Shown: positions 4,609 to 62,523, counted from the first letter of the stretch. The stretch is 64,000 nt of DNA from an uncultured Clostridia bacterium (GCA_944387385.1 CALXES010000003.1:66399-130398); one strand, 5' to 3'. The notes: generated from the letters alone by a model not told the origin. Translations and numbers: made by a program.

Positions 4609-5034
4609 ATGAAGGATACAGATATTTTAAAAGAAATAAATAAAGCCTCAAAATATGGAATAAATGGTATTAATTTAACATTACAAAAAGCTATAGACAG
4701 TAATTTTAAAAATGTACTATATGCTCAAAAAGATGAATATGAAAATATTTATAACAGAAGTAAAGATTTGCTAATAGAGAAAAATCAAAGCTCTGAAGAT
4801 TTAGATCCTCTTGAAAAAGCGATGTCATGGATGTCTATACAAATGTCTACACTTACAAATGCATCAAATTCAAAGCTTGCAGAAATACTAATTCAGGGAA
4901 ATGATATGGGAATAATAAAAGGTCAAAAATTATTAAATAGTCCTATGTCAAAAGACTCTACAACTCAAAATTTAATTAAAGACTTTATTCATCTACAACA
5001 AGAAAATATAGAAGGATTAAAAAAATATTTATAA
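4609..5034 (+). CDS. hypothetical helical protein (possibly a CotF/ferritin-like four-helix bundle)
   Basis: 141-aa ORF with AGGTGA SD and a downstream terminator. Family guess rests only on a loose pattern (DILKEINKASKY...). Confidence 0.55.
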   Translation: MKDTDILKEINKASKYGINGINLTLQKAIDSNFKNVLYAQKDEYENIYNRSKDLLIEKNQSSEDLDPLEKAMSWMSIQMSTLTNASNSKLAEILIQGNDMGIIKGQKLLNSPMSKDSTTQNLIKDFIHLQQENIEGLKKYL

Positions 5035-16382: not shown

Positions 16383-17537
16383 TTACTTTCTTAATACTTT
16401 CTTTGCTATTCTTTTTCCTTTTCTTAGAATCTTTTTAACAATAGAAACTCTAGTATATTTATTCATAACATCTATAACATTATCACTATTTATAGAGCCT
16501 TTTTTTATACCTTCAAAAAACTTATCTCTACTTTTATGTGCAGGTACATTACTGAAATGATTATATTTAGCAGCTACATCAATATCTACTTTTTCAAGTA
16601 TAGAAGTATTATTTTTAAATATATTTAATAAGCTCTTTCCTTTTTCAGAATTTACTGTTAATAATGAAACTCCTTTTGTAGAATCTAAATCAGGTTTTAC
16701 TTTTTCAATTTTCCAAAAATCTGCTATCGTAAAATCAGTTATTCTACTTTTAGAAGCAAAAACACAAAAGTTACAAGATCTTCTATTAATTAATTCTTTA
16801 CCAAAGGCATTTTTAAATGTATCTTCATATAATACTTGATCATTTTGTAACTCAATTAATGTTCTTTCGTCTCCCCATTTAATTTCTTTACTTCTAAATC
16901 TAATATCTTTCACTTTTTTGGAATATTTTTTTTCTAAATTTTCTTTATATAACTTAAATACTTTAGGTGATGGATTAGCATGACATAGTATATCACAAAG
17001 TATTAAATTATCATATTCTTTACCAAGATAACTTTTTAATCCACTTATTTGACAAGCCGTTCCTGTATATAATACTACTCGTCCATCTTTTAAAAACTTT
17101 TCAGCTTCTTTATATGTGTTTTTCAAATCACTTCTTACATATTTAGAACCACAAAACTGTTTACAATCTTCTAAAGTTTCAGCATATTTGTGAATTACAT
17201 TTAAATCCTCATCATAGGTAACACCAAACACTACACCTTTATTTTCTATAACATATTTTGCTAATATGTAGAACATACCACCAGAAGAAGCATTTTTAAG
17301 TTCTTTATCATTATTATTAATAGCTATATATGCAACTGACTCTTGTTCACTTTTATTAAAATTAGAGCATACTTTCTCACATAAACCACAATTAATACAC
17401 TTTTCTTTATTTATATGTGGATATAAAAATCCTTCACCATCTTCTACCATTTCAATTGCACTTTTTGGACATCGCAAAGCACAAGTTCCACAACCATTAC
17501 ATAGTTCTTTTTTACCAGTATTAAAATAATTTTCCAT
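16383..17537 (-). CDS. F420-hydrogenase beta-subunit-like (FrhB family) 2x[4Fe-4S] protein, copy A
   Basis: 384 aa; [12 protein letters not shown] and [11 protein letters not shown] ferredoxin motifs. This family commonly accompanies polysaccharide pyruvyl transferases. Confidence 0.8.
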
Positions 17538-17761: not shown

Positions 17762-18916
17762 TTACTTTCTTAATACTTTCTTTGCTATTCTTTTTCCTTT
17801 TCTTAGAATCTTTTTAACAATAGAAACTCTAGTATATTTATTCATAACATCTATAACATTATCACTATTTATAGAGCCTTTTTTTATACCTTCAAAAAAC
17901 TTATCTCTACTTTTATGTGCAGGTACATTACTGAAATGATTATATTTAGCAGCTACATCAATATCTACTTTTTCAAGTATAGAAGTATTATTTTTAAATA
18001 TATTTAATAAGCTCTTTCCTTTTTCAGAATTTACTGTTAATAATGAAACTCCTTTTGTAGAATCTAAATCAGGTTTTACTTTTTCAATTTTCCAAAAATC
18101 TGCTATCGTAAAATCAGTTATTCTACTTTTAGAAGCAAAAACACAAAAGTTACAAGATCTTCTATTAATTAATTCTTTACCAAAGGCATTTTTAAATGTA
18201 TCTTCATATAATACTTGATCATTTTGTAACTCAATTAATGTTCTTTCGTCTCCCCATTTAATTTCTTTACTTCTAAATCTAATATCTTTCACTTTTTTGG
18301 AATATTTTTTTTCTAAATTTTCTTTATATAACTTAAATACTTTAGGTGATGGATTAGCATGACATAGTATATCACAAAGTATTAAATTATCATATTCTTT
18401 ACCAAGATAACTTTTTAATCCACTTATTTGACAAGCCGTTCCTGTATATAATACTACTCGTCCATCTTTTAAAAACTTTTCAGCTTCTTTATATGTGTTT
18501 TTCAAATCACTTCTTACATATTTAGAACCACAAAACTGTTTACAATCTTCTAAAGTTTCAGCATATTTGTGAATTACATTTAAATCCTCATCATAGGTAA
18601 CACCAAACACTACACCTTTATTTTCTATAACATATTTTGCTAATATGTAGAACATACCACCAGAAGAAGCATTTTTAAGTTCTTTATCATTATTATTAAT
18701 AGCTATATATGCAACTGACTCTTGTTCACTTTTATTAAAATTAGAGCATACTTTCTCACATAAACCACAATTAATACACTTTTCTTTATTTATATGTGGA
18801 TATAAAAATCCTTCACCATCTTCTACCATTTCAATTGCACTTTTTGGACATCGCAAAGCACAAGTTCCACAACCATTACATAGTTCTTTTTTACCAGTAT
18901 TAAAATAATTTTCCAT
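17762..18916 (-). CDS. FrhB-family 2x[4Fe-4S] protein, copy B (protein identical to copy A)
   Basis: 384 aa, identical translation to 16383..17537. Confidence 0.8.
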
Positions 18917-49946: not shown

Positions 49947-50224
49947 AATTCACCTTTGTTCTCTAAGAACATCCTTTCTATTAGTATTAATTAACTATGC
50001 CATTAACAATTGTTGATGGAAAATATATTAATTTTCACGTGATAATTATATCAAAAAAAGATTTGTTTTGCAATACTTTATGTAAATTAAAGTAAAGTTT
50101 ATAATATTTATATGGTAACATTAATTCTAAGACTGGTAGTTTAGACTGGTACAAATAAAAAAATACCAGTCTAATGACTGGTAAATACTAAAAAATCAAC
50201 GTTCTTCACGAACAAATTGATGTA

Positions 50225-51138: not shown

Positions 51139-52017
51139 TTACATATCAATATTAAGTAATGATAGTAAACTCTCTAATCCTTCTTCATCATTATATTCAA
51201 TTATTAATCTCTGATGTTTTTTTGTCTGATCAAGTTTTACTTTATAACCAAAATAATCTTTTAATTTATTTTCCAAATTTTGATAATAAACAGACTTTGG
51301 TGGTTTTTTTGTATTTTTCTTTCTATATTTGTCATCTCCATATATTAATTTTTCAACATCTCTTACAGTTAATTTTTTTTCTGCTACTTTTTTTGCAATT
51401 GCTATTTGTTTTTCTTTATCTTCAATAGCAAGTAAAGCTCTTGCTTGTCCTTCTACTAATTCTCCTTTTAAAGTCATATTAAGAATCTCGTCTGGTAGTT
51501 TTAATAATCTTGTTATATTAGAAATTGTAGATAAGCTTTTACCTGTAATTTTAGCTACATCTGTACTTGTATATCCTTCTAAATCCATTAATTCTTTAAT
51601 AGCTTGTGCCACTTCTACAATATTTAAATCTTCTCTTTGTATGTTTTCTATAAGGGCGACTTGTTTCTTTTTATTATCCGTATAATCTTTTATTATTGCT
51701 GGAATCGTTTTCAAACCAGCGGCTTTTGCAGCTCTCCATCTTCTTTCACCTGCAACAATTGTATATCCATTATTATCTTTTACAACAAGTATTGGTTGTA
51801 TAACTCCATTTTCACGTATAGAATCCGTTAATTCTTGTAATTTTTCTTTGTCAAATATTTTTCTAGGTTGATTTAACATAGGCTCAATTTCAGTTATATT
51901 AAGTTCTACAACTTTTTCAAGTACTTTTCCTTCATCTTTTTTAGTTACTTTTTTTATTGTATCATCATTATCATCACCAAAAAAAGCATCTAAACCTCTT
52001 CCTAAACCCTTAGCCAT
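51139..52017 (-). CDS. parB: ParB/Spo0J chromosome partitioning protein with an atypical HTH
   Basis: 292 aa; GLGRGLDAFF, GERRWRAAKAAGL (CTP-binding box), IENIQREDLN. HTH reads GKSLSTISNITRLLKLP. Confidence 0.9.
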   Translation of the reverse strand: MAKGLGRGLDAFFGDDNDDTIKKVTKKDEGKVLEKVVELNITEIEPMLNQPRKIFDKEKLQELTDSIRENGVIQPILVVKDNNGYTIVAGERRWRAAKAAGLKTIPAIIKDYTDNKKKQVALIENIQREDLNIVEVAQAIKELMDLEGYTSTDVAKITGKSLSTISNITRLLKLPDEILNMTLKGELVEGQARALLAIEDKEKQIAIAKKVAEKKLTVRDVEKLIYGDDKYRKKNTKKPPKSVYYQNLENKLKDYFGYKVKLDQTKKHQRLIIEYNDEEGLESLLSLLNIDM

Positions 52018-52018
52018 A

Positions 52019-52789
52019 TTAATCCTCCTTTTCTGTTAATTTTATTAGCTCTTTTGCTAATTTTTTATATGTTTCTGCACCTTTTGATTCACTATCATAT
52101 AGTGTAATTGGCAATCCATGACTTGGTGCCTCACTTAGTCTAATATTTCTTGGAATAATAGTCTGAAATACTTTATTTCCAAAATATTTTTCAACTTCTC
52201 TTGCAACCTGTGTAGATAAGTTTGTCCTAGCATCAAACATTGTAAGAATTACTCCTTCAATAATAAAATCTGGATTTAAATGTTTTTGAACAAGTTTAAT
52301 TGTATTAATAAGTTGTCCTAGCCCTTCAAGTGCATAATACTCGCATTGTATTGGTACAAGTACACTATCAGATGCTGTAAATGCATTTAATGTAATAAGA
52401 CCAAGTGATGGTGGGCAATCAATTAGAATATAGTCATACTCATCTTTTATTTTATCTACTGCATCCTTTAATCTATTTTCTCTTGAAACCATTGAAACAA
52501 GTTCAATTTCAGCTCCTGCCAAATTGATATTTGCAGGACAAACTTCTAATTTTTTTACCATTGTTTTTACAATAGTTTCACTTATATCCATATCATCTAC
52601 AAGTACATTATATACTGATTTATCTGTATGAGCTTCAATTCCTAATCCACTTGTTGCATTTCCCTGTGGATCTATATCTATTAATAATACTCTTTTACCT
52701 TTTTGTGCAAGACATGCACTCAAATTAACTGCAGTTGTTGTTTTGCCTACTCCACCTTTTTGATTAGCTATTGATATTACCCTTGCCAT
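52019..52789 (-). CDS. parA: ParA/Soj ATPase
   Basis: 256 aa; deviant Walker A NQKGGVGKTT; DCPPSLG. Confidence 0.93.
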   Translation of the reverse strand: MARVISIANQKGGVGKTTTAVNLSACLAQKGKRVLLIDIDPQGNATSGLGIEAHTDKSVYNVLVDDMDISETIVKTMVKKLEVCPANINLAGAEIELVSMVSRENRLKDAVDKIKDEYDYILIDCPPSLGLITLNAFTASDSVLVPIQCEYYALEGLGQLINTIKLVQKHLNPDFIIEGVILTMFDARTNLSTQVAREVEKYFGNKVFQTIIPRNIRLSEAPSHGLPITLYDSESKGAETYKKLAKELIKLTEKED

Positions 52790-52941
52790 AATGTCACCTC
52801 ACGGTTATTATATTACATTTAAAGAAAAAATAAAAGAGAAAAGAATAAAATTTATATTTTTTAATAGTCGTAATTTGTCTATAAAAATATTGTACACAAA
52901 AAAATAGAGATGTGTACACAACAATCTCTATTCTAATATTT

Positions 52942-53667
52942 TTATAATGTTTTTTTCTTTATTTGACCATAATTTCTTGGGTATTTAGGAGGTGTACACA
53001 TATTTTTTTGTATAATCAAAATATTTCTATGATAATCTTCATTATTAATTGTGTACACATATTCAAAGCACCTATTTATCTTTAGTTTTAAAACATTTAA
53101 AGCGTTTGTAGATAACTTTATTTCTTCCTGTACACTATCACCTTTCATTATTATAGATTTTCCACCAACTTTTACAAATGGACTAATATATTCTAAAAGT
53201 ATTGGTAATTGTGCTACAGCTCTTGATACAGTTGCATCAAACTTTTCTCTAAATTCTTCTTTTCTTGCTTCTTCTTCTGCTCTTCCATGAACTATGTGTA
53301 CATTCTTTAAATCGAGTTTGTTAGCTACTTCTTGTAAAAAAATTAATCTCTTATTTAAAGCATCTAATAAAGTAAATTCTTTATCTTCATAATATATTGC
53401 AAGTACCATACCTGGAAATCCAGCACCAGTACCAATATCTATTATATTTTTTTCATCTTTAATTACCTTTGTACACATTAAACAATCTACAAAGTGTTTA
53501 ACTATTATTTCATGTTCATCTACTATAGCTGTAAGATTCATTTTTTCATTCCACTCAATTAATAAATCTTTGTACACATTTAATTTTTCTGCATGTTTTT
53601 CTGTAAGTTGTATATCTTGCTTTTCACATTCTTTACATAATAATTCTATAAATTCTTCGCTTTTCAT
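52942..53667 (-). CDS. rsmG: 16S rRNA (guanine527-N7)-methyltransferase
   Basis: 241 aa; WNEKMNLTAI and DIGTGAGFPG SAM motifs; conserved position beside mnmG. Confidence 0.92.
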   Translation of the reverse strand: MKSEEFIELLCKECEKQDIQLTEKHAEKLNVYKDLLIEWNEKMNLTAIVDEHEIIVKHFVDCLMCTKVIKDEKNIIDIGTGAGFPGMVLAIYYEDKEFTLLDALNKRLIFLQEVANKLDLKNVHIVHGRAEEEARKEEFREKFDATVSRAVAQLPILLEYISPFVKVGGKSIIMKGDSVQEEIKLSTNALNVLKLKINRCFEYVYTINNEDYHRNILIIQKNMCTPPKYPRNYGQIKKKTL

Positions 53668-53678
53668 ATGAAAACCTC

Positions 53679-55583
53679 CTACTTATTAATATTATGTTGA
53701 CTTAAGTAAATAAGTAAAACAGATATATCAGCTGGAGATACCCCTGATATTCTTGAGGCTTGACCAACAGATAATGGCTTTTGTTTATTTAGCTTTTGTC
53801 TAGCTTCTAAGCAAAGTCCCTTAATTTCATTATAATCTATATTTGGACTAAGTTTTTTACTTTCTAGCTGTTTAAATTCATCAATTTGTTCTTGCTGAAG
53901 TTTTATATATCCTTCATATTTTATTTGAATTTCTGCTTCTTCTGCAACACTTCTTGGTAAATCTTTTCTTTTCTTATCAATTGGAGCTAGACTTTTATAA
54001 CTTAATTCACTTCTTTTGAGTAAATCAGATAACTTGCATCCTGTACTAAGAGGAGAAGAACCAAGAGATTCTAATAATTCATTAACTTGTGTACTTGGTC
54101 TAATAGGTGTTGCTTTAATTCTTTCTATCTCCATTCTAATTAAATCTTTTTTGTGTACAAATTTTTTATATTTTTCTTCACTAACAAGTCCAACTTTATA
54201 TCCCTTTTCTGTAAGTCTTAAATCTGCATTATCTTGTCTTAAGGCAAGTCTATACTCTGCACGTGAAGTCATCATTCTGTAAGGCTCATTTGTTCCTTTA
54301 GTTACTAAATCATCTATTAAAACACCAATATATGCTTCTGATCTATCAAGTATTAATGGCTCTTTATTATCTATCTTTAAAACAGCATTAATTCCTGCAA
54401 TAATTCCTTGTGCAGCAGCTTCTTCATATCCAGAAGATCCATTTACTTGTCCAGCAAAAAATAATCCATCAATTCCTTTATATTCAAGACTTAGCTTTAA
54501 ATTTGTAGAATCAATACAATCATACTCAATTGCATAAGCTGGTCTCATCATTTTAGCATTTTCAAGTCCTGGAACAGATCTATACATCTGAATTTGAACT
54601 TCTTCTGGAAGAGATGATGACATTCCTTGAATGTACATTTCAGAGGTTTTTTCTCCTAAAGGCTCAATAAATAATTGATGTCTTTTCTTATCTGCAAACC
54701 TAACTACTTTATCTTCAATAGATGGACAATATCTAGGACCTGTAGATTTTAATTTCATATCTTTATTATCTGTATATATTGGAGATCTATCTAAATTAGC
54801 TCGAATTATTTTATGAGTTTCTTCAGTTGTGTACGTTAAATAACAAGATACTTGGTTTTTGTGTACAATTTCTTCTTTTCCTTCATTTTCAAAAGAAAAT
54901 GGTACAATCTCTTTATCTCCAAATTGTTCTTCCATCTTAGAAAAGTCAATAGTTTTAGCATTAATTCTAGCAGGTGTACCAGTTTTAAATCTTCTAAGTT
55001 CTATACCCAAATCTAATAGACTTTGAGATAAGTCATTAGCAGGAAAAACACCATCTGGTCCACTCTCGTAAGACACTTCACCAATAATTACTTTTCCTTT
55101 TAAATATGTACCTGTAGCAACTATAACAGCTTTTGTATTAAAAGTAGCTCCAATCTTTGTCTTTACTCCTACCACTTTGTTATTTTCAACTAATATTTTT
55201 ACAATTTCTGCTTGGTACACATCAAGATTTTCTTGTTCTTCCATTGTTTTTTTCATTTCAATATGGTACATTCTTCTATCTGATTGTACACGTAATGAAT
55301 GCACGGCAGGTCCCTTAGATGTATTAAGCATTTTAGATTGAATAAAAGTTTTATCTGCATTTTTTCCCATTTCTCCACCTAAAGCATCTATTTCTCTTAC
55401 TAAATGACCTTTAGATGTACCTCCTATACTTGGATTACATGGCATATTTGCAAGAGTATCCAAGTTAATAACAAATGCTGCTGTTTTTTTACCCATTCTA
55501 GCAGCTGCTAGTGCTGCTTCACATCCAGCATGTCCAGCTCCTATAACAACTACATCATAATCTCCTAAACAATATTCGCTCAT
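53679..55583 (-). CDS. mnmG: tRNA uridine 5-carboxymethylaminomethyl modification enzyme
   Basis: 634 aa; N-terminal FAD fold [26 protein letters not shown]. Confidence 0.95.
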
Positions 55584-55593
55584 CTTATCCTCC

Positions 55594-56967
55594 TTACTTT
55601 CCTAAACAAAACTTTTCAAAAATTTTAGAAATAATATCTTGCGTTACATCTGCACCAATTATTTCTCCTAATGTCTTTGTACACTTTTTAACATATATTG
55701 ATACAATATCTATTGGTTGCCCAAGATTAATTTCATTTTTAGCATCTATTAAGTATTCTATTGATTTTTTTAATAAATCTTTATGTCTTTCATTTGTAAT
55801 TATTAATTCATGTGAATAATCTAAATCTGATACATTAAATAATTTAGTTATCTCATTTTTTAAATTATCTATGCCATCATTTTCTTGTGCTGAAATACAA
55901 ACTGGTTTTTTTATGCCATTTTGTTCTAATTCTTTCAAAATTGTGCTTAAAATCGTTTTTTTAGTCAGATCCATCTTATTTATCACCGGAATATATTTAA
56001 TGCCTTTATTTTCGATTTTAGAAAGAATTTCAAAGTCCTCTTTTGATATTCCTTCCTCTCCATTTATTAAATACAATACTAAATCAACTTCATCTAGAAT
56101 TTTTAAACTTTTTTCTACACCAATTTTTTCTATAATATCATCTGTGTCTCTTATTCCAGCTGTATCTGATATATTTAAAACAATATTTCCAAGATTAATT
56201 GTCTCTTCAACAATATCTCTAGTTGTACCTGGTATATCTGTTACTATAGCTTTTTCATAATTAGCAAGATTATTTAAAAGTGATGACTTACCAACATTTG
56301 GTTTTCCAAGTATTGCAACATTTACTCCATTTTTTATATATTTTCCATGATCGTAAGTATCAAGAATATGTTGAATTTCAGATATTTTTCTATCAAGTAA
56401 GGATATAATACTTGTTGGCTCTACTTCATCATAATCATATTCTGGGTAATCTACACTTACCTCAATATGTGCCATAAGTTCAACTAATTCCTCACGTAAT
56501 GCTTTTATCTTTTTAGATAAATCTCCTTCCATATTTTTAGCTGCAATTCTACTTTCTGTTCTAGTTTTTGCATTTATTAAATTAATAACTGCTTCAGCTT
56601 GAGATAAATCCATTTTTCCATTTAAAAAGGCTCTCTTTGAAAATTCTCCTGGCTCAGCAATAGATGCTCCATTTTCTAAAACAATTTCTAATATATCTTT
56701 TGTAATTTGTGTTCCTCCATGACAGTTAATTTCACATACATCTTCTCCTGTATAAGAATGGGGAGCCTTAAAGTAAGATACTAAAACGTTGTCTATAATT
56801 TCTCCTTTATCTATAATTTTTCCATAAATAATGTGATTTGGCTCTAATTTTGAATTTGATTTAAAAATTTTATTTATTATGTTTAAGCTATCCTTTCCAC
56901 TTATTCTAATAATACTAATACCACTATTAGATAAGGCAGTACCAATAGCAGCAATTGTTGTAGACAT
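55594..56967 (-). CDS. mnmE: tRNA modification GTPase
   Basis: 457 aa; G-domain [12 protein letters not shown] and DTAG; C-terminal CLGK. Confidence 0.95.
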
Positions 56968-59604: not shown

Positions 59605-60674
59605 TATTACTACACCTCCTAAACAATGTATATATATTAAATAATTTTCAACTCAAAAAAATAAATGCTAATCATTTAGTTAATTAAGCATTCAAACATA
59701 ATATAAGTGAAAATATTATACACTATTATATTTTTTTTGTCAACCCCCTCAAGATCTAAAACTAATTGTAAAACACAACAATTTTCCACAAAAGTTATCC
59801 ACAGTTTTTATGTATACTTGTAAATTACAAATTTGACTATCTTTGACCTTAAAAAATCAAATTTATATGTGGATAACTTAAAAGTGATTACAAATTGTAA
59901 TTAAAAATATGTAAAAAATAAACATAAAAACATAAGTTATCCACAGTTTTTACGTAAACTAAACACTGATAGAAATTATATTAAAAAAAATTTTGCGCAG
60001 TTAAATTTTTAATAAAAAATTTTCACAAAAAAAACTTTAGTAAATTCAGTATTTTCAGTATGTTAAAGGTTTCATAATTTTTTTATTTTTTGTGAAAATA
60101 TTTAAAGTTATCCACAGATTTTATGTATATTTATTTTAAAATTTTTTTATGAAAAATCAAGTTATCCACAATTTTATCCACAAAGGTGTGGATAACTTTT
60201 TTTGCTTTTCGGTGTTTCAAAAAAATTTTGTTGTTTTTTACAACTATTATCCACATGGACAACTTTCTTTAATTTTATATATTTTGAATTAATTTTAATT
60301 TACATATGTAAAAGTTTAAAAAAAACATTAATTTATCTGTATTTTACAAATTTACATAAAAATTGTGGATAACTTATTTTTATTTATAAATTACAAAAAA
60401 AAGAATAGGCTATTTTACTGGGTTTTAAAGTGTTTTCTAGTTAAAATTACAAAAATATTTCAAAAACATTGCCAAAATGTTATTTTTTACAATTTTAAAA
60501 GTTATCCACAGAAAATTGTGGATAACCTGTGGATAACTATGTGATAGAATTGTGAAAATAAATTTTTGTCGAAAAGTTATCCACATGGGGTGTGGATAAC
60601 TACACTACTTATCCACAAAGTTATCCACATTAAATGCACCAGTCAAAGCCTTGAAAAAAGCGGATTTTTAAAAG

Positions 60675-60747
60675 TTATCCACATTATCCACACCCCCTAC
60701 TACTACTACTATATATAAAAGAATAAATAACTTAATATTTTAATTAA
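60675..60747. promoter_or_regulatory. candidate basal unwinding element: 2 abutting DnaA boxes, GC cluster, DnaA-trio-like repeats, AT-only stretch
   Basis: TTATCCACA TTATCCACA (60675-60692), CCCCC (60693-60697), (CTA)5 at 60697-60711 (TAG x5 on the other strand), then a G/C-free stretch 60710-60747. Confidence 0.6.
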
Positions 60748-60767
60748 CGCGCGTACGCGCGCGCGTG
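60747..60767. repeat. 21-nt perfectly alternating purine-pyrimidine CG-rich tract
   Basis: ACGCGCGTACGCGCGCGCGTG read directly. Contains the palindrome CGCGCGTACGCGCG. Surrounded by essentially 100% AT sequence. Confidence 0.9.
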
Positions 60768-61110
60768 AGAAAAAAATTGGTTTACATTTTTAGAAATTCT
60801 TTACAAAAAAAAATAAATAAAAAATTTTTTTATTCACAATACATTGTTAAAAATGTTTATAACTATATTATTTTTTTAATTAAAAAGTAAAAAATTAATT
60901 ATATATAAATTTATAAAAAAATTATATTTACTTATTCACATTATAAACATTGAATATAGTTATGACTACAATAATATATAAAAAAATTTTTTATGTGGAA
61001 AATGTGGATAAAATAAATTTTCCAATTTTTTTAATATTGATTTTTTAAAAATATTTTATTATAATAAAGAAAGATATAACGGTTTTATTTTTTTGTAAAG
61101 GAGGGATAAG

Positions 61111-62523
61111 ATGGAAGAGAATTTTATGAATGTTTGGGAAAAAGCTTTGGAAATATTAAAGGATGAAATATCTCAAATAGCATACAATACATATATTGAA
61201 GTAATGGTACCTCGACTTGTAGATAAAAATACTGTTTGTTTTTTATCACCATCTAGTTATTATATTGATATTTGTAAAAAAAGATATCTTGAACTTATTA
61301 GAAATACATTAAAATATTTAACTAGTGTAGATTATCAAATAATATTTGAAGCTAAACCAACAATTCCAGAAAATGGAGACTCTGATTTAGAAGATTTAGA
61401 AATTATTAGAGGACAATATGGGGATATTGAATCAGAAAATTCTGATGAAAAATTAAACCCTATATTAGATAAAGAAAAAATAAGAGAAAAAGCAGGACTT
61501 AATAAAAGATATACTTTTGATAATTTTATTATTGGAAATAACAATCGTTTTGCTAGAGCTACTGCATATTCTGTGTATGAAAATTTAGGACTTACTAATC
61601 CATTATATATATATGGTGGAGTAGGACTTGGAAAGACACACTTAATGCAAGCAATAGGTAATGCTGTAATTGACGAGGATCCCTCTAAAAAGGTTTTTTA
61701 TTGTACAGGTGAGTTATTTGTTAATGAGCTAATAAAAGTCATGTTAAATCCTAAAAATGCAGATTTAAATGATTCCTTTAAAAAGAAGTTTAGAAATGCA
61801 GATTTACTTTTAATAGACGATGTACAAATAATTGCGGGAAAAGATAAATGTCAAGAAGAATTTTTCCACACATTTAATGCTTTATGTGAAAGTGGAAAAC
61901 AAATTGTTCTTACATCTGAAAAACCTCCAAAAGAAATAAATGGACTTGAAGATAGATTAAAAACTAGATTTTCAATGGGAGTAAGTGTTGATATTCAAAC
62001 ACCAGACTATGAGACAAGACTTGCAATATTAAAAAAGAAAGCAGAAGAAGAGAGATATTTAATTGATGATGAAATATTAATAAAAGTTGCAACAAAAGTA
62101 AAATCTAATGTAAGAGAACTTGAAGGAGTTTTTAATAAATTAATGGCTTACACTAAATTTACTAATAATCAGTTAACAGATCCTGTTGTAGATAATATAA
62201 TAGAATCTATTTTAGTAAAAAATAGCAATGTATTATCTAGTACATTGGTAATGCAAGTAGTAGCAAAATTTTTTGATTTAAGAGTAAGTGACTTAACAAG
62301 TGATAAAAGATCTACATCTATTGCATATCCTAGACAAATTGCTATGTATTTGTGTAGAGAAGTAGCAGATATGTCTTTTTCTGCAATAGGAAAAGATTTT
62401 GGTGGAAGAGATCATTCAACTGTATTACATGCATATTCGAAAATAAAGGATGAATATGATAATAATCCAGATACAAAAGATTTAATTGATGATATTAAAA
62501 AGACGTTAGAAAGAGAAAGTTAA
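61111..62523 (+). CDS. dnaA: chromosomal replication initiator protein
   Basis: 470 aa; AAA+ motifs GGVGLGKTHL and LLLIDDVQ; C-terminal DnaA signature IGKDFGGRDHSTVLHA. Confidence 0.97.
   Translation: MEENFMNVWEKALEILKDEISQIAYNTYIEVMVPRLVDKNTVCFLSPSSYYIDICKKRYLELIRNTLKYLTSVDYQIIFEAKPTIPENGDSDLEDLEIIRGQYGDIESENSDEKLNPILDKEKIREKAGLNKRYTFDNFIIGNNNRFARATAYSVYENLGLTNPLYIYGGVGLGKTHLMQAIGNAVIDEDPSKKVFYCTGELFVNELIKVMLNPKNADLNDSFKKKFRNADLLLIDDVQIIAGKDKCQEEFFHTFNALCESGKQIVLTSEKPPKEINGLEDRLKTRFSMGVSVDIQTPDYETRLAILKKKAEEERYLIDDEILIKVATKVKSNVRELEGVFNKLMAYTKFTNNQLTDPVVDNIIESILVKNSNVLSSTLVMQVVAKFFDLRVSDLTSDKRSTSIAYPRQIAMYLCREVADMSFSAIGKDFGGRDHSTVLHAYSKIKDEYDNNPDTKDLIDDIKKTLERES

Follow-up and report, generated by a model that had tools for sequence, protein, structure and literature searches.

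Bacterial chromosome segregation is generally taken to rely on a nearly universal pair, parS and the arginine that reads it. Jalal et al. (2020) showed that this residue, R173 in Caulobacter numbering, hydrogen-bonds guanine 1 (G1) of parS, and reported it to be absolutely conserved (PMC7383237). In their scan of 160,000 variants, the parS-specific variants had 'an invariable R at position 173', while 17 residues were tolerated at position 179 and any residue at position 184 (PMC7383237). In Noc, the Firmicutes paralogue of ParB, a change from R to Q at 173 switches G1 to A1, enabled by 'permissive' lysines at 179 and 184 (PMC7383237). G1 is kept by every experimentally studied chromosomal parS listed in a review, for example those of S. 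pneumoniae (AGTTTCACGTGAAACT) and M. smegmatis (GTTTCACGTGAAAC), and ParBs of secondary replicons and plasmids with divergent parS have also been described, e.g., that of B. cenocepacia chromosome II with gTTTATGCGCATAAAc (PMC7022226). Here, we analyzed the parB (spo0J) gene in a 64,000-nucleotide stretch of DNA from an uncultured Clostridia bacterium (GCA_944387385.1 CALXES010000003.1:66399-130398), which we call the window. We found that its product carries leucine in place of R173, and that a candidate AT-shifted parS upstream of the parA-parB pair appears to have lost G1.

The genes and the protein segments concerned are the following:
51139..52017, minus strand: parB/spo0J gene, 292 aa (open reading frame (ORF) and translation).
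52019..52789, minus strand: soj/parA, a deviant Walker-A ATPase directly upstream of parB (NCBIfam ParA-family matches).
51493..51543, minus strand: turn and recognition helix of the helix-turn-helix (HTH), residues 159-175, GKSLSTISNITRLLKLP (translation; helix 162-173 in the model).
51532..51534, minus strand: Leu162, a TTA codon, equivalent to Caulobacter R173 (sequence and alignments).
51439..51456, minus strand: VEGQAR, residues 188-193 (G190 equals G201, Q191 equals H202, R193 equals R204).

Apart from the recognition helix, the protein was described in the first-pass annotation as a normal Spo0J, and the analysis agrees. It has the architecture of a ParB_N cytidine triphosphatase (CTPase) domain, an HTH_ParB domain and a putative C-terminal dimerisation domain. 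Pfam matches were found with PF02195 (118.5 bits), PF17762 (104.1 bits) and, for the C-terminal domain, PF23552 as a borderline match (23.7 bits against a cutoff of 23.8). In the AlphaFold2 model, residues 241-287 of this C-terminal domain form a helix-strand-strand-helix, with a predicted local distance difference test score (pLDDT) of only about 60-70. The CTP-binding motifs GERRWRA and ENIQREDL are both present and invariant within the clade described below, and the N-terminus (MAKGLGRGLDAFF) includes GLGRGLDAFF with the LG(R/K)GL peptide that stimulates ParA. The closest matches in the PDB, by sequence and by fold (top Foldseek hits), are ParB, Spo0J and Noc.

The gene lies in the order mnmE-mnmG-rsmG-soj-parB, about 10 kb from dnaA (at 61111) and oriC. 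A single nucleotide separates the soj stop from the parB start, and the two genes are probably translationally coupled. The first-pass annotation had noted no second ParB or Noc paralogue between rsmG and soj; searching with tblastn, we found none in the whole window, so that the gene at 51139-52017 is the sole ParB-family gene there. Taken together, the protein looks like a normal CTP-dependent clamp and ParA partner, and like the chromosome's primary Spo0J.

The first-pass annotation had read L/I/K/G at the specificity positions 173/179/184/201 from GKSLSTISNITRLLKLP and VEGQAR, and this reading was confirmed, with residues 159-175 falling exactly at 51493-51543. The specificity residues that it attributed to Jalal et al. 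2020 agree with that paper (PMC7383237). Residue equivalence was examined with HMMER alignments to Myxococcus 7BNK, Thermus 1VZ0, H. pylori 4UMK and Geobacillus Noc 7NG0. All were ungapped through this region and upheld the proposed positions, giving L162=173, I168=179, K173=184, G190=201, Q191=202 and R193=204. The DNA-binding domain scored about alike against the Noc and ParB structures. In the model, L162 opens the recognition helix (162-173, pLDDT about 87-92), and the DNA-binding domain superposes on the parS-bound Caulobacter domain (6S6H_A) at 2.4 A.

To see which of these residues depart from other ParBs, we compared them with an outgroup set made of the 148 nearest representatives (about 150 for positions other than 173) from 1.84 billion proteins clustered at 50% identity. 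Position 173 is R in all of them (148/148), as it is in every solved ParB. Position 179 is T, S, A, I and others, with I in 11 of about 150 and also in H. pylori Spo0J; K occupies position 184 in 54 of about 150. Glycine at 201 is normal (140 of about 150), and R193 (R204) is a conserved DNA contact. At position 202, where 138/150 have H, the window ParB carries Q191. ParBs that bind parS thus show free variation at 179 and 184, and with an ordinary G201 the four-residue signature reduces to one anomaly, R173L, L173 being the sole unusual residue in L/I/K/G. Thus, the earlier claim that this combination matches neither class stands for residue 173, where the substitution is anomalous, and falls for I179 and K184, which are ordinary, and for G201. 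We regard R173L as the decisive residue because parS binders in the scan invariably had R173; this chromosomal ParB has Leu162 in place of the arginine.

The loss is not confined to one genome. None of the 120 closest database proteins (80-100% identity, from metagenome-assembled genomes of uncultured gut Clostridia) has R173, nor does any of about 38 further metagenome loci down to 62% identity. The replacements across the clade are V, L, I, M, A, T, D, Q and P. Variability was computed on 38 clade sequences made non-redundant at 95% identity, in which position 173 is V19/L7/I6/A2/T1/D1 among the listed residues. Its entropy, 2.15 bits where the median over residues 38-225 is 0.18, places it among the six most variable positions in the folded part of a protein that is about 87% identical across the clade. 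K160, S166, N167, R170, G190, A192 and R193 are invariant in the clade, and position 184 is K35/R3, against K in only 54/150 of the outgroups. Beyond the clade, the closest cluster representative (P0121, 50% identity) again has R173, and the arginine is kept in equally AT-rich outgroups, the loci L056 (28% GC) and L060 (27% GC). By these alignments, R173 is lost in a whole clade of gut and anaerobe Clostridia with about 25-30% GC.

To look for the DNA site, we sampled about 74 kb of this genome (the 64 kb window and 10 kb beyond dnaN, locus L059) and about 20 kb per relative; the clade set for site counts comprised 22 species-level loci (437 kb). The window and all loci were scanned for parS and for the Noc-binding site (NBS) at a tolerance of 3 mismatches. 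Apart from L052, neither the clade loci nor the window with its extra 10 kb past dnaN gave a canonical 16-bp parS (TGTTNCACGTGAAACA) with at most 1 mismatch. NBS (ATTTCCCGGGAAAT) with at most 2 mismatches was absent from the window, the 10 kb beyond dnaN and the clade loci. As a positive control, the R173 outgroup L048 (43% identity) has canonical TGTTCCACGTGGAACA and TGTTTCACGTGGAACA flanking parB.

Two candidates in the window were set aside. The best match to parS, TGTTGCAGGTGAAAGA at 51742-51757 (2 mismatches), encodes VAGERR inside parB and is non-palindromic, and was rejected. The same pseudo-match in the VAGERR codons, part of the ParB CTP-binding motif, recurs in parB of L003, L005 and L026. 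The intergenic TTTCACGTGATA at 50033..50044, downstream of parB and one mismatch from the parS core, is not claimed as a site because it lacks conservation in L003 and matches with one mismatch are unenriched.

A motif was found when the search was relaxed to the parS core, as the 12-mer TTTCA[CT][AG]TGAAA (TTTCAYRTGAAA). In the window it forms the following feature:
53661..53674, no strand assigned: TTTTCATATGAAAA, a perfect 14-bp palindrome and proposed AT-shifted parS, at the mnmG stop/rsmG start, 0.87 kb upstream of parA.

We identified 36 matches to TTTCAYRTGAAA in the 437 kb (22 loci), against 0.69 expected from a first-order Markov simulation whose maximum was 3 in 100 runs. The motif sits at the mnmG-rsmG junction in all clade loci covering this junction, and many lineages have 2-4 copies, with diverging flanking DNA. 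In the window, the rsmG ATG (53665-53667) lies within the TTTTCATATGAAAA site. The possibility that TTTCACATGAAA at the rsmG start is a coincidence of Shine-Dalgarno (SD) sequence and ATG was considered and rejected, as copies exist outside the start-codon context and an R173 outgroup has a G1-flanked version. In L009 and the L028 group, one copy is intergenic, upstream of the SD and outside the rsmG start codon, and another stands at a differing distance from the start codon or in another reading frame. In L007 and L010, where rsmG starts with GTG, the motif persists as TTTCATGTGAAA, and additional copies lie inside mnmG in several lineages. L022 has four copies, two of them abutting DnaA boxes. 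The copies outside the start context, the GTG-start lineages and the copies inside mnmG argue that the motif is more than an SD-spacer-ATG arrangement.

The two parS-like sites of L022 that directly abut DnaA boxes lie at 1634-1660 and 4704-4730 (TTTCACGTGAAAAGTTATCCAC). This suggests that L022 interleaves putative sites of ParB loading with its clusters of DnaA boxes.

We then examined the base just 5' of TTTCA, which is equivalent to G1. Of the 72 clade half-sites, 48 have T here and 10 have A, while G and C account for 7 each; the background for T is about 0.33. Half of the sites (18/36) have T on both halves, and none (0/36) has G on both. L056, the nearest R173 outgroup (50% identity, helix GKNRTTITN), has TGTTTCATATGAAACT at its mnmG-rsmG junction (875-890), with G1 on both halves and the centre CATATG. 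This combination of R173 and G1 with a CATATG centre indicates that the relaxed central CG predates the loss of R173. Both R173 outgroups with sites, L056 and L048, retain G. Thus, residue 173 and the G1 position are shown to covary in the aligned loci, and the base lost from the site is the base that the lost residue reads.

Taken together, these data suggest that the clade has a ParB with a shortened, AT-shifted parS, the protein and its DNA site evolving together, and we put the probability of this reading at roughly 0.62. The changed DNA specificity proposed in the first-pass annotation remains the best reading of the substitution. Clade loci have T-TTTCA-Y-R-TGAAA-A where canonical parS has TG-TTTCAC-GTGAAA-CA: T stands in for G1, the outermost T has lost its conservation, and YR takes the place of the central CG. 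In the proposed mechanism, K160, S161, N167 and R193 (K171, S172, N178 and R204) would still read the TTTCA core. From the mostly aliphatic residue at 173 no contact would be expected, or at most a van der Waals one with the methyl group of thymine, and the near-invariant Lys184 may give non-specific affinity, the role that Jalal et al. call 'permissive'. ParB would then load at the AT-shifted site, close on CTP, slide, and work with Soj as usual. We infer the binding, the Leu-thymine contact, the role of K184 and the CTPase and clamp activities.

The variability of residue 173 also bears on another explanation, in which sequence-specific nucleation has been lost and ParB acts as a DNA clamp or nucleoid protein that is non-specific or recruited in some other way. 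There is almost no constraint on position 173, where even D, P, Q and T occur, and further contact positions vary in the clade (S, N or Q at Caulobacter Q162; S or N at S172). However, the remaining DNA-contact surface is invariant at the seven residues given above in proteins of about 87% identity, the soj-spo0J pair has kept its synteny and the protein its CTP-binding motifs and its ParA-activating N-terminus, and the parS-like site is conserved in every locus covering the junction. We therefore consider a ParB without specific nucleation very improbable.

Several observations weigh against a co-evolved, AT-shifted parS. The 160,000-variant scan used a Caulobacter scaffold and tested parS and NBS alone (PMC7383237). 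The occurrence of D, T, Q and P at 173 is more readily explained by loss of a contact than by a new and specific one between Leu and T. Only one perfect site exists in the window, and it overlaps the rsmG SD and start codon, so that part of its conservation could be translational, and one-mismatch matches in the window are unenriched (4 found, 2.95 expected). The 36 matches are not independent events, since they are mostly homologous copies of one site. The outgroup comparison rests on two species, L056 and L048, and a third R173 outgroup, L060, has no site in 5.6 kb (uninformative). L052 (OOWH01013460) has two canonical TGTTTCACGTGAAACA sites (236-296), 45 bp apart and about 75-120 bp upstream of parA-parB. 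The N-terminus of its ParB is 72% identical to that of the window ParB, and its closest protein, P0270, ends just before the HTH; the covariation argument would weaken if the L052 ParB also lacked R173. An origin-distant canonical parS may lie beyond the roughly 74 kb of this genome or the 20 kb per relative.

Many of the same facts can be read another way, namely that the substitution is near-neutral or the real sites lie elsewhere, and that the conservation of TTTCAYRTGAAA mostly reflects rsmG translation signals and AT drift. ParB would then depend on parS of the canonical type outside the sampled DNA, or could bind the parS core with no need for G1. The coverage of about 74 kb and about 20 kb per relative, the overlap of the junction site with SD and ATG in most lineages, the canonical parS of L052 as a related lineage, and the chance level of one-mismatch matches in the window are compatible with it, and drift from G to T or A is expected in a genome of 25.5% GC. 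However, variants without R173 are absent among the parS-specific binders of the 160,000-variant scan (PMC7383237), and outside the clade R173 is universal, even in the AT-rich L056 (28% GC) and L060 (27% GC). L056 also retains G1 at its junction despite its 28% GC, and several lineages carry motif copies outside the start-codon context and within mnmG. This explanation is unlikely on balance.

The first-pass annotation had paired the unusual helix with a repeated motif upstream of parA:
52891..55683, no strand assigned: array of 13 TGTACA cores, 12 of which extend to GTGTACA on one side or both, running from the parA promoter region through rsmG and mnmG into the 3' end of mnmE.

The window contains 14 copies of TGTGTACA where 1.16 would be expected, a count that 0/100 shuffles reached. 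The 13 cores of the array lie within 2.8 kb directly upstream of parAB, and there are none in the 10 kb beyond dnaN, across oriC. Outside the window species, the array is found only in a sister species (loci L003/L004) whose ParB is 92% identical, and it lies at mostly the same positions there. Compared with L005, L001 and L007, derived amino-acid replacements in conserved proteins were required for about 8-9 of the 12 coding sites (for example EILNKK to EIVHKN and KFLEKK to KFVHKK in mnmG, and KKSTKT to KKCTKT in mnmE), and one further coding site uses a rare CGT codon. That array sites were made by derived amino-acid changes points to selection on the DNA itself.

A rival explanation is that ParB has been retargeted to the TGTGTACA(CA) array as a multi-site centromere, with Leu162 part of a new recognition code. 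The array is real, highly non-random, under selection and directly upstream of parAB; it is the sole repeated element in the window besides the DnaA boxes, and both array-bearing species share the identical helix GKSLSTISNIT. However, the array arose once, and it is absent from all other lineages without R173, so it cannot explain the clade-wide loss. Lineages with an L173 helix and without the array include L033 (GKSLSTVSNIT), L055 (GKSLPTVSNIT), L044 and L018, and it is also absent from L009, whose helix differs by L to V alone. L043 has the identical helix, on a contig too short to judge. In addition, the motif is a 7-10 bp core with no likeness to parS, its half-site spacing seems unfit for the 16-bp geometry of a ParB dimer, and the array-bearing species retain the parS-like site, mid-array. 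Retargeting of ParB to the array is thus quite unlikely, and the pairing with the helix was not borne out, the array being restricted to two sister species and absent where the helix is the same or nearly the same (L033, L055 and L009). The parS-derived site, which lacks the base read by R173 and is conserved clade-wide, explains the substitution better than the array does. For the window species and its sister, we consider it similarly doubtful that the array serves as a new centromere or ParB-loading platform, read directly or via a second DNA-binding mode.

A link between ParB and the array is at present unsupported. One possibility is that the array is bound by an origin-anchoring or other origin-proximal DNA-binding protein. 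Neighbouring genes were considered as binders and set aside: these are a 184-aa ORF without Pfam match and a Crp-like regulator that is not obviously compatible with the motif. Lineage-specific arrays in relatives were also rejected, as local k-mer clustering of 20 loci gave DnaA boxes only, which served as the positive control. A search for long palindromes and repeated 12-mers in the window and across loci revealed nothing besides DnaA boxes, a tRNA arm and coding-conserved palindromes. A terminator-like hairpin of rsmG (52905-52935, minus strand; TAGAGAT..TGTGTACACATCTCTA followed by a T-run) holds one TGTGTACACA site. L003 retains this hairpin, and the array motif inside it has decayed to TAGTACAC. 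Literature searches gave nothing relevant on TGTGTACACA, nor on a chromosomal parS of Clostridia that is non-canonical or degenerate.

Judging from the literature searched, a ParB/parS variant that breaks a residue reported to be invariant is undescribed. The pairing of R173 with G1 is assumed by genome-wide parS prediction, by ParB-based DNA labelling and by the model for the evolution of specificity from ParB to Noc. If the AT-shifted parS proposed here is right, it would be a natural third state of the ParB/Noc interface in a widespread clade of gut Clostridia, and an evolutionary path actually taken would become available as a direct test of the 'permissive lysine first, specificity residue second' model. 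Scans with canonical parS (TGTTNCACGTGAAACA) would call genomes of this clade centromere-less; the pattern for sites with T at position 1 is TTTTCAYRTGAAAA. The pair would also be potentially orthogonal for labelling. A binding test would be cheap, requiring 4-5 oligonucleotide probes, one protein and one reversion mutant.

Other features of the neighbourhood were also observed. The oriC region (59790-60680), between rpmH and dnaA, contains a cluster of DnaA boxes (TTATCCACA), about 20 in number, of which 11 read AAGTTATCCACA; the same cluster is found in the clade loci that extend this far (L001, L003, L005, L007, L020, L028, L037, L042, L044, L047 and L055). At 60747-60768, oriC has an alternating purine-pyrimidine GC tract, AACGCGCGTACGCGCGCGCGTG, which includes the perfect palindrome CGCGCGTACGCGCG, in a genome of 25.5% GC. 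Similar (CG)n tracts occur in oriC of L009 and L011, and the tract may be a Z-DNA-prone or unwinding-related element. Tandem 384-aa ORFs at 16383-17537 and 17762-18916 (minus strand) share many identical 12-mers at a 1379-bp offset and appear to be recent paralogues. Between rsmG and parA, ORFs without Pfam match lie at 8050-9135 in L007/L008 (361 aa in L007), and two more (50 and 190 aa) at 8315-9068 in L012.

Compared with canonical ParB/Spo0J (B. subtilis, Caulobacter, H. pylori and Thermus; parS TGTTNCACGTGAAACA), the window ParB shares the ParB_N and HTH_ParB domains, the LGRGL peptide and the gene order, and probably the C-terminal domain. It is 40-50% identical to the solved canonical ParBs and keeps the K171, S172, N178, G201 and R204 contacts. 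It differs from them in having Leu for R173, Ser for Q162 and Gln for H202. Its candidate site keeps the TTTCA...TGAAA core of canonical parS, but has T for G1, an unconserved outermost base and YR for the central CG, and the roughly 74 kb sampled around oriC contain no canonical parS.

The protein also differs from Noc. It scores 222.6 bits against the NCBIfam Noc family (TIGR04285), under the cutoff of 315. In the 7NG0 alignment, K184 is the sole match to the Noc specificity residues Q173/K179/K184/R201; the other three positions carry L, I and G, respectively. B. subtilis Noc has an amphipathic membrane-targeting helix at its N-terminus in place of the ParA-interaction motif, whereas the N-terminus here is of the Spo0J type. 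The gene lies downstream of soj, while noc lies upstream, and the window has no NBS-like sites (at most 2 mismatches).

The system described here resembles the ParBs of secondary replicons in that it is likewise of type Ia, with changes in the recognition helix and a palindromic site that appears to have diverged from the universal parS. However, those ParBs are extra systems beside a canonical chromosomal ParB/parS, whereas the window ParB looks like the sole, origin-proximal, primary system, and its proposed site, in contrast to theirs, is a minimal derivative of canonical parS.

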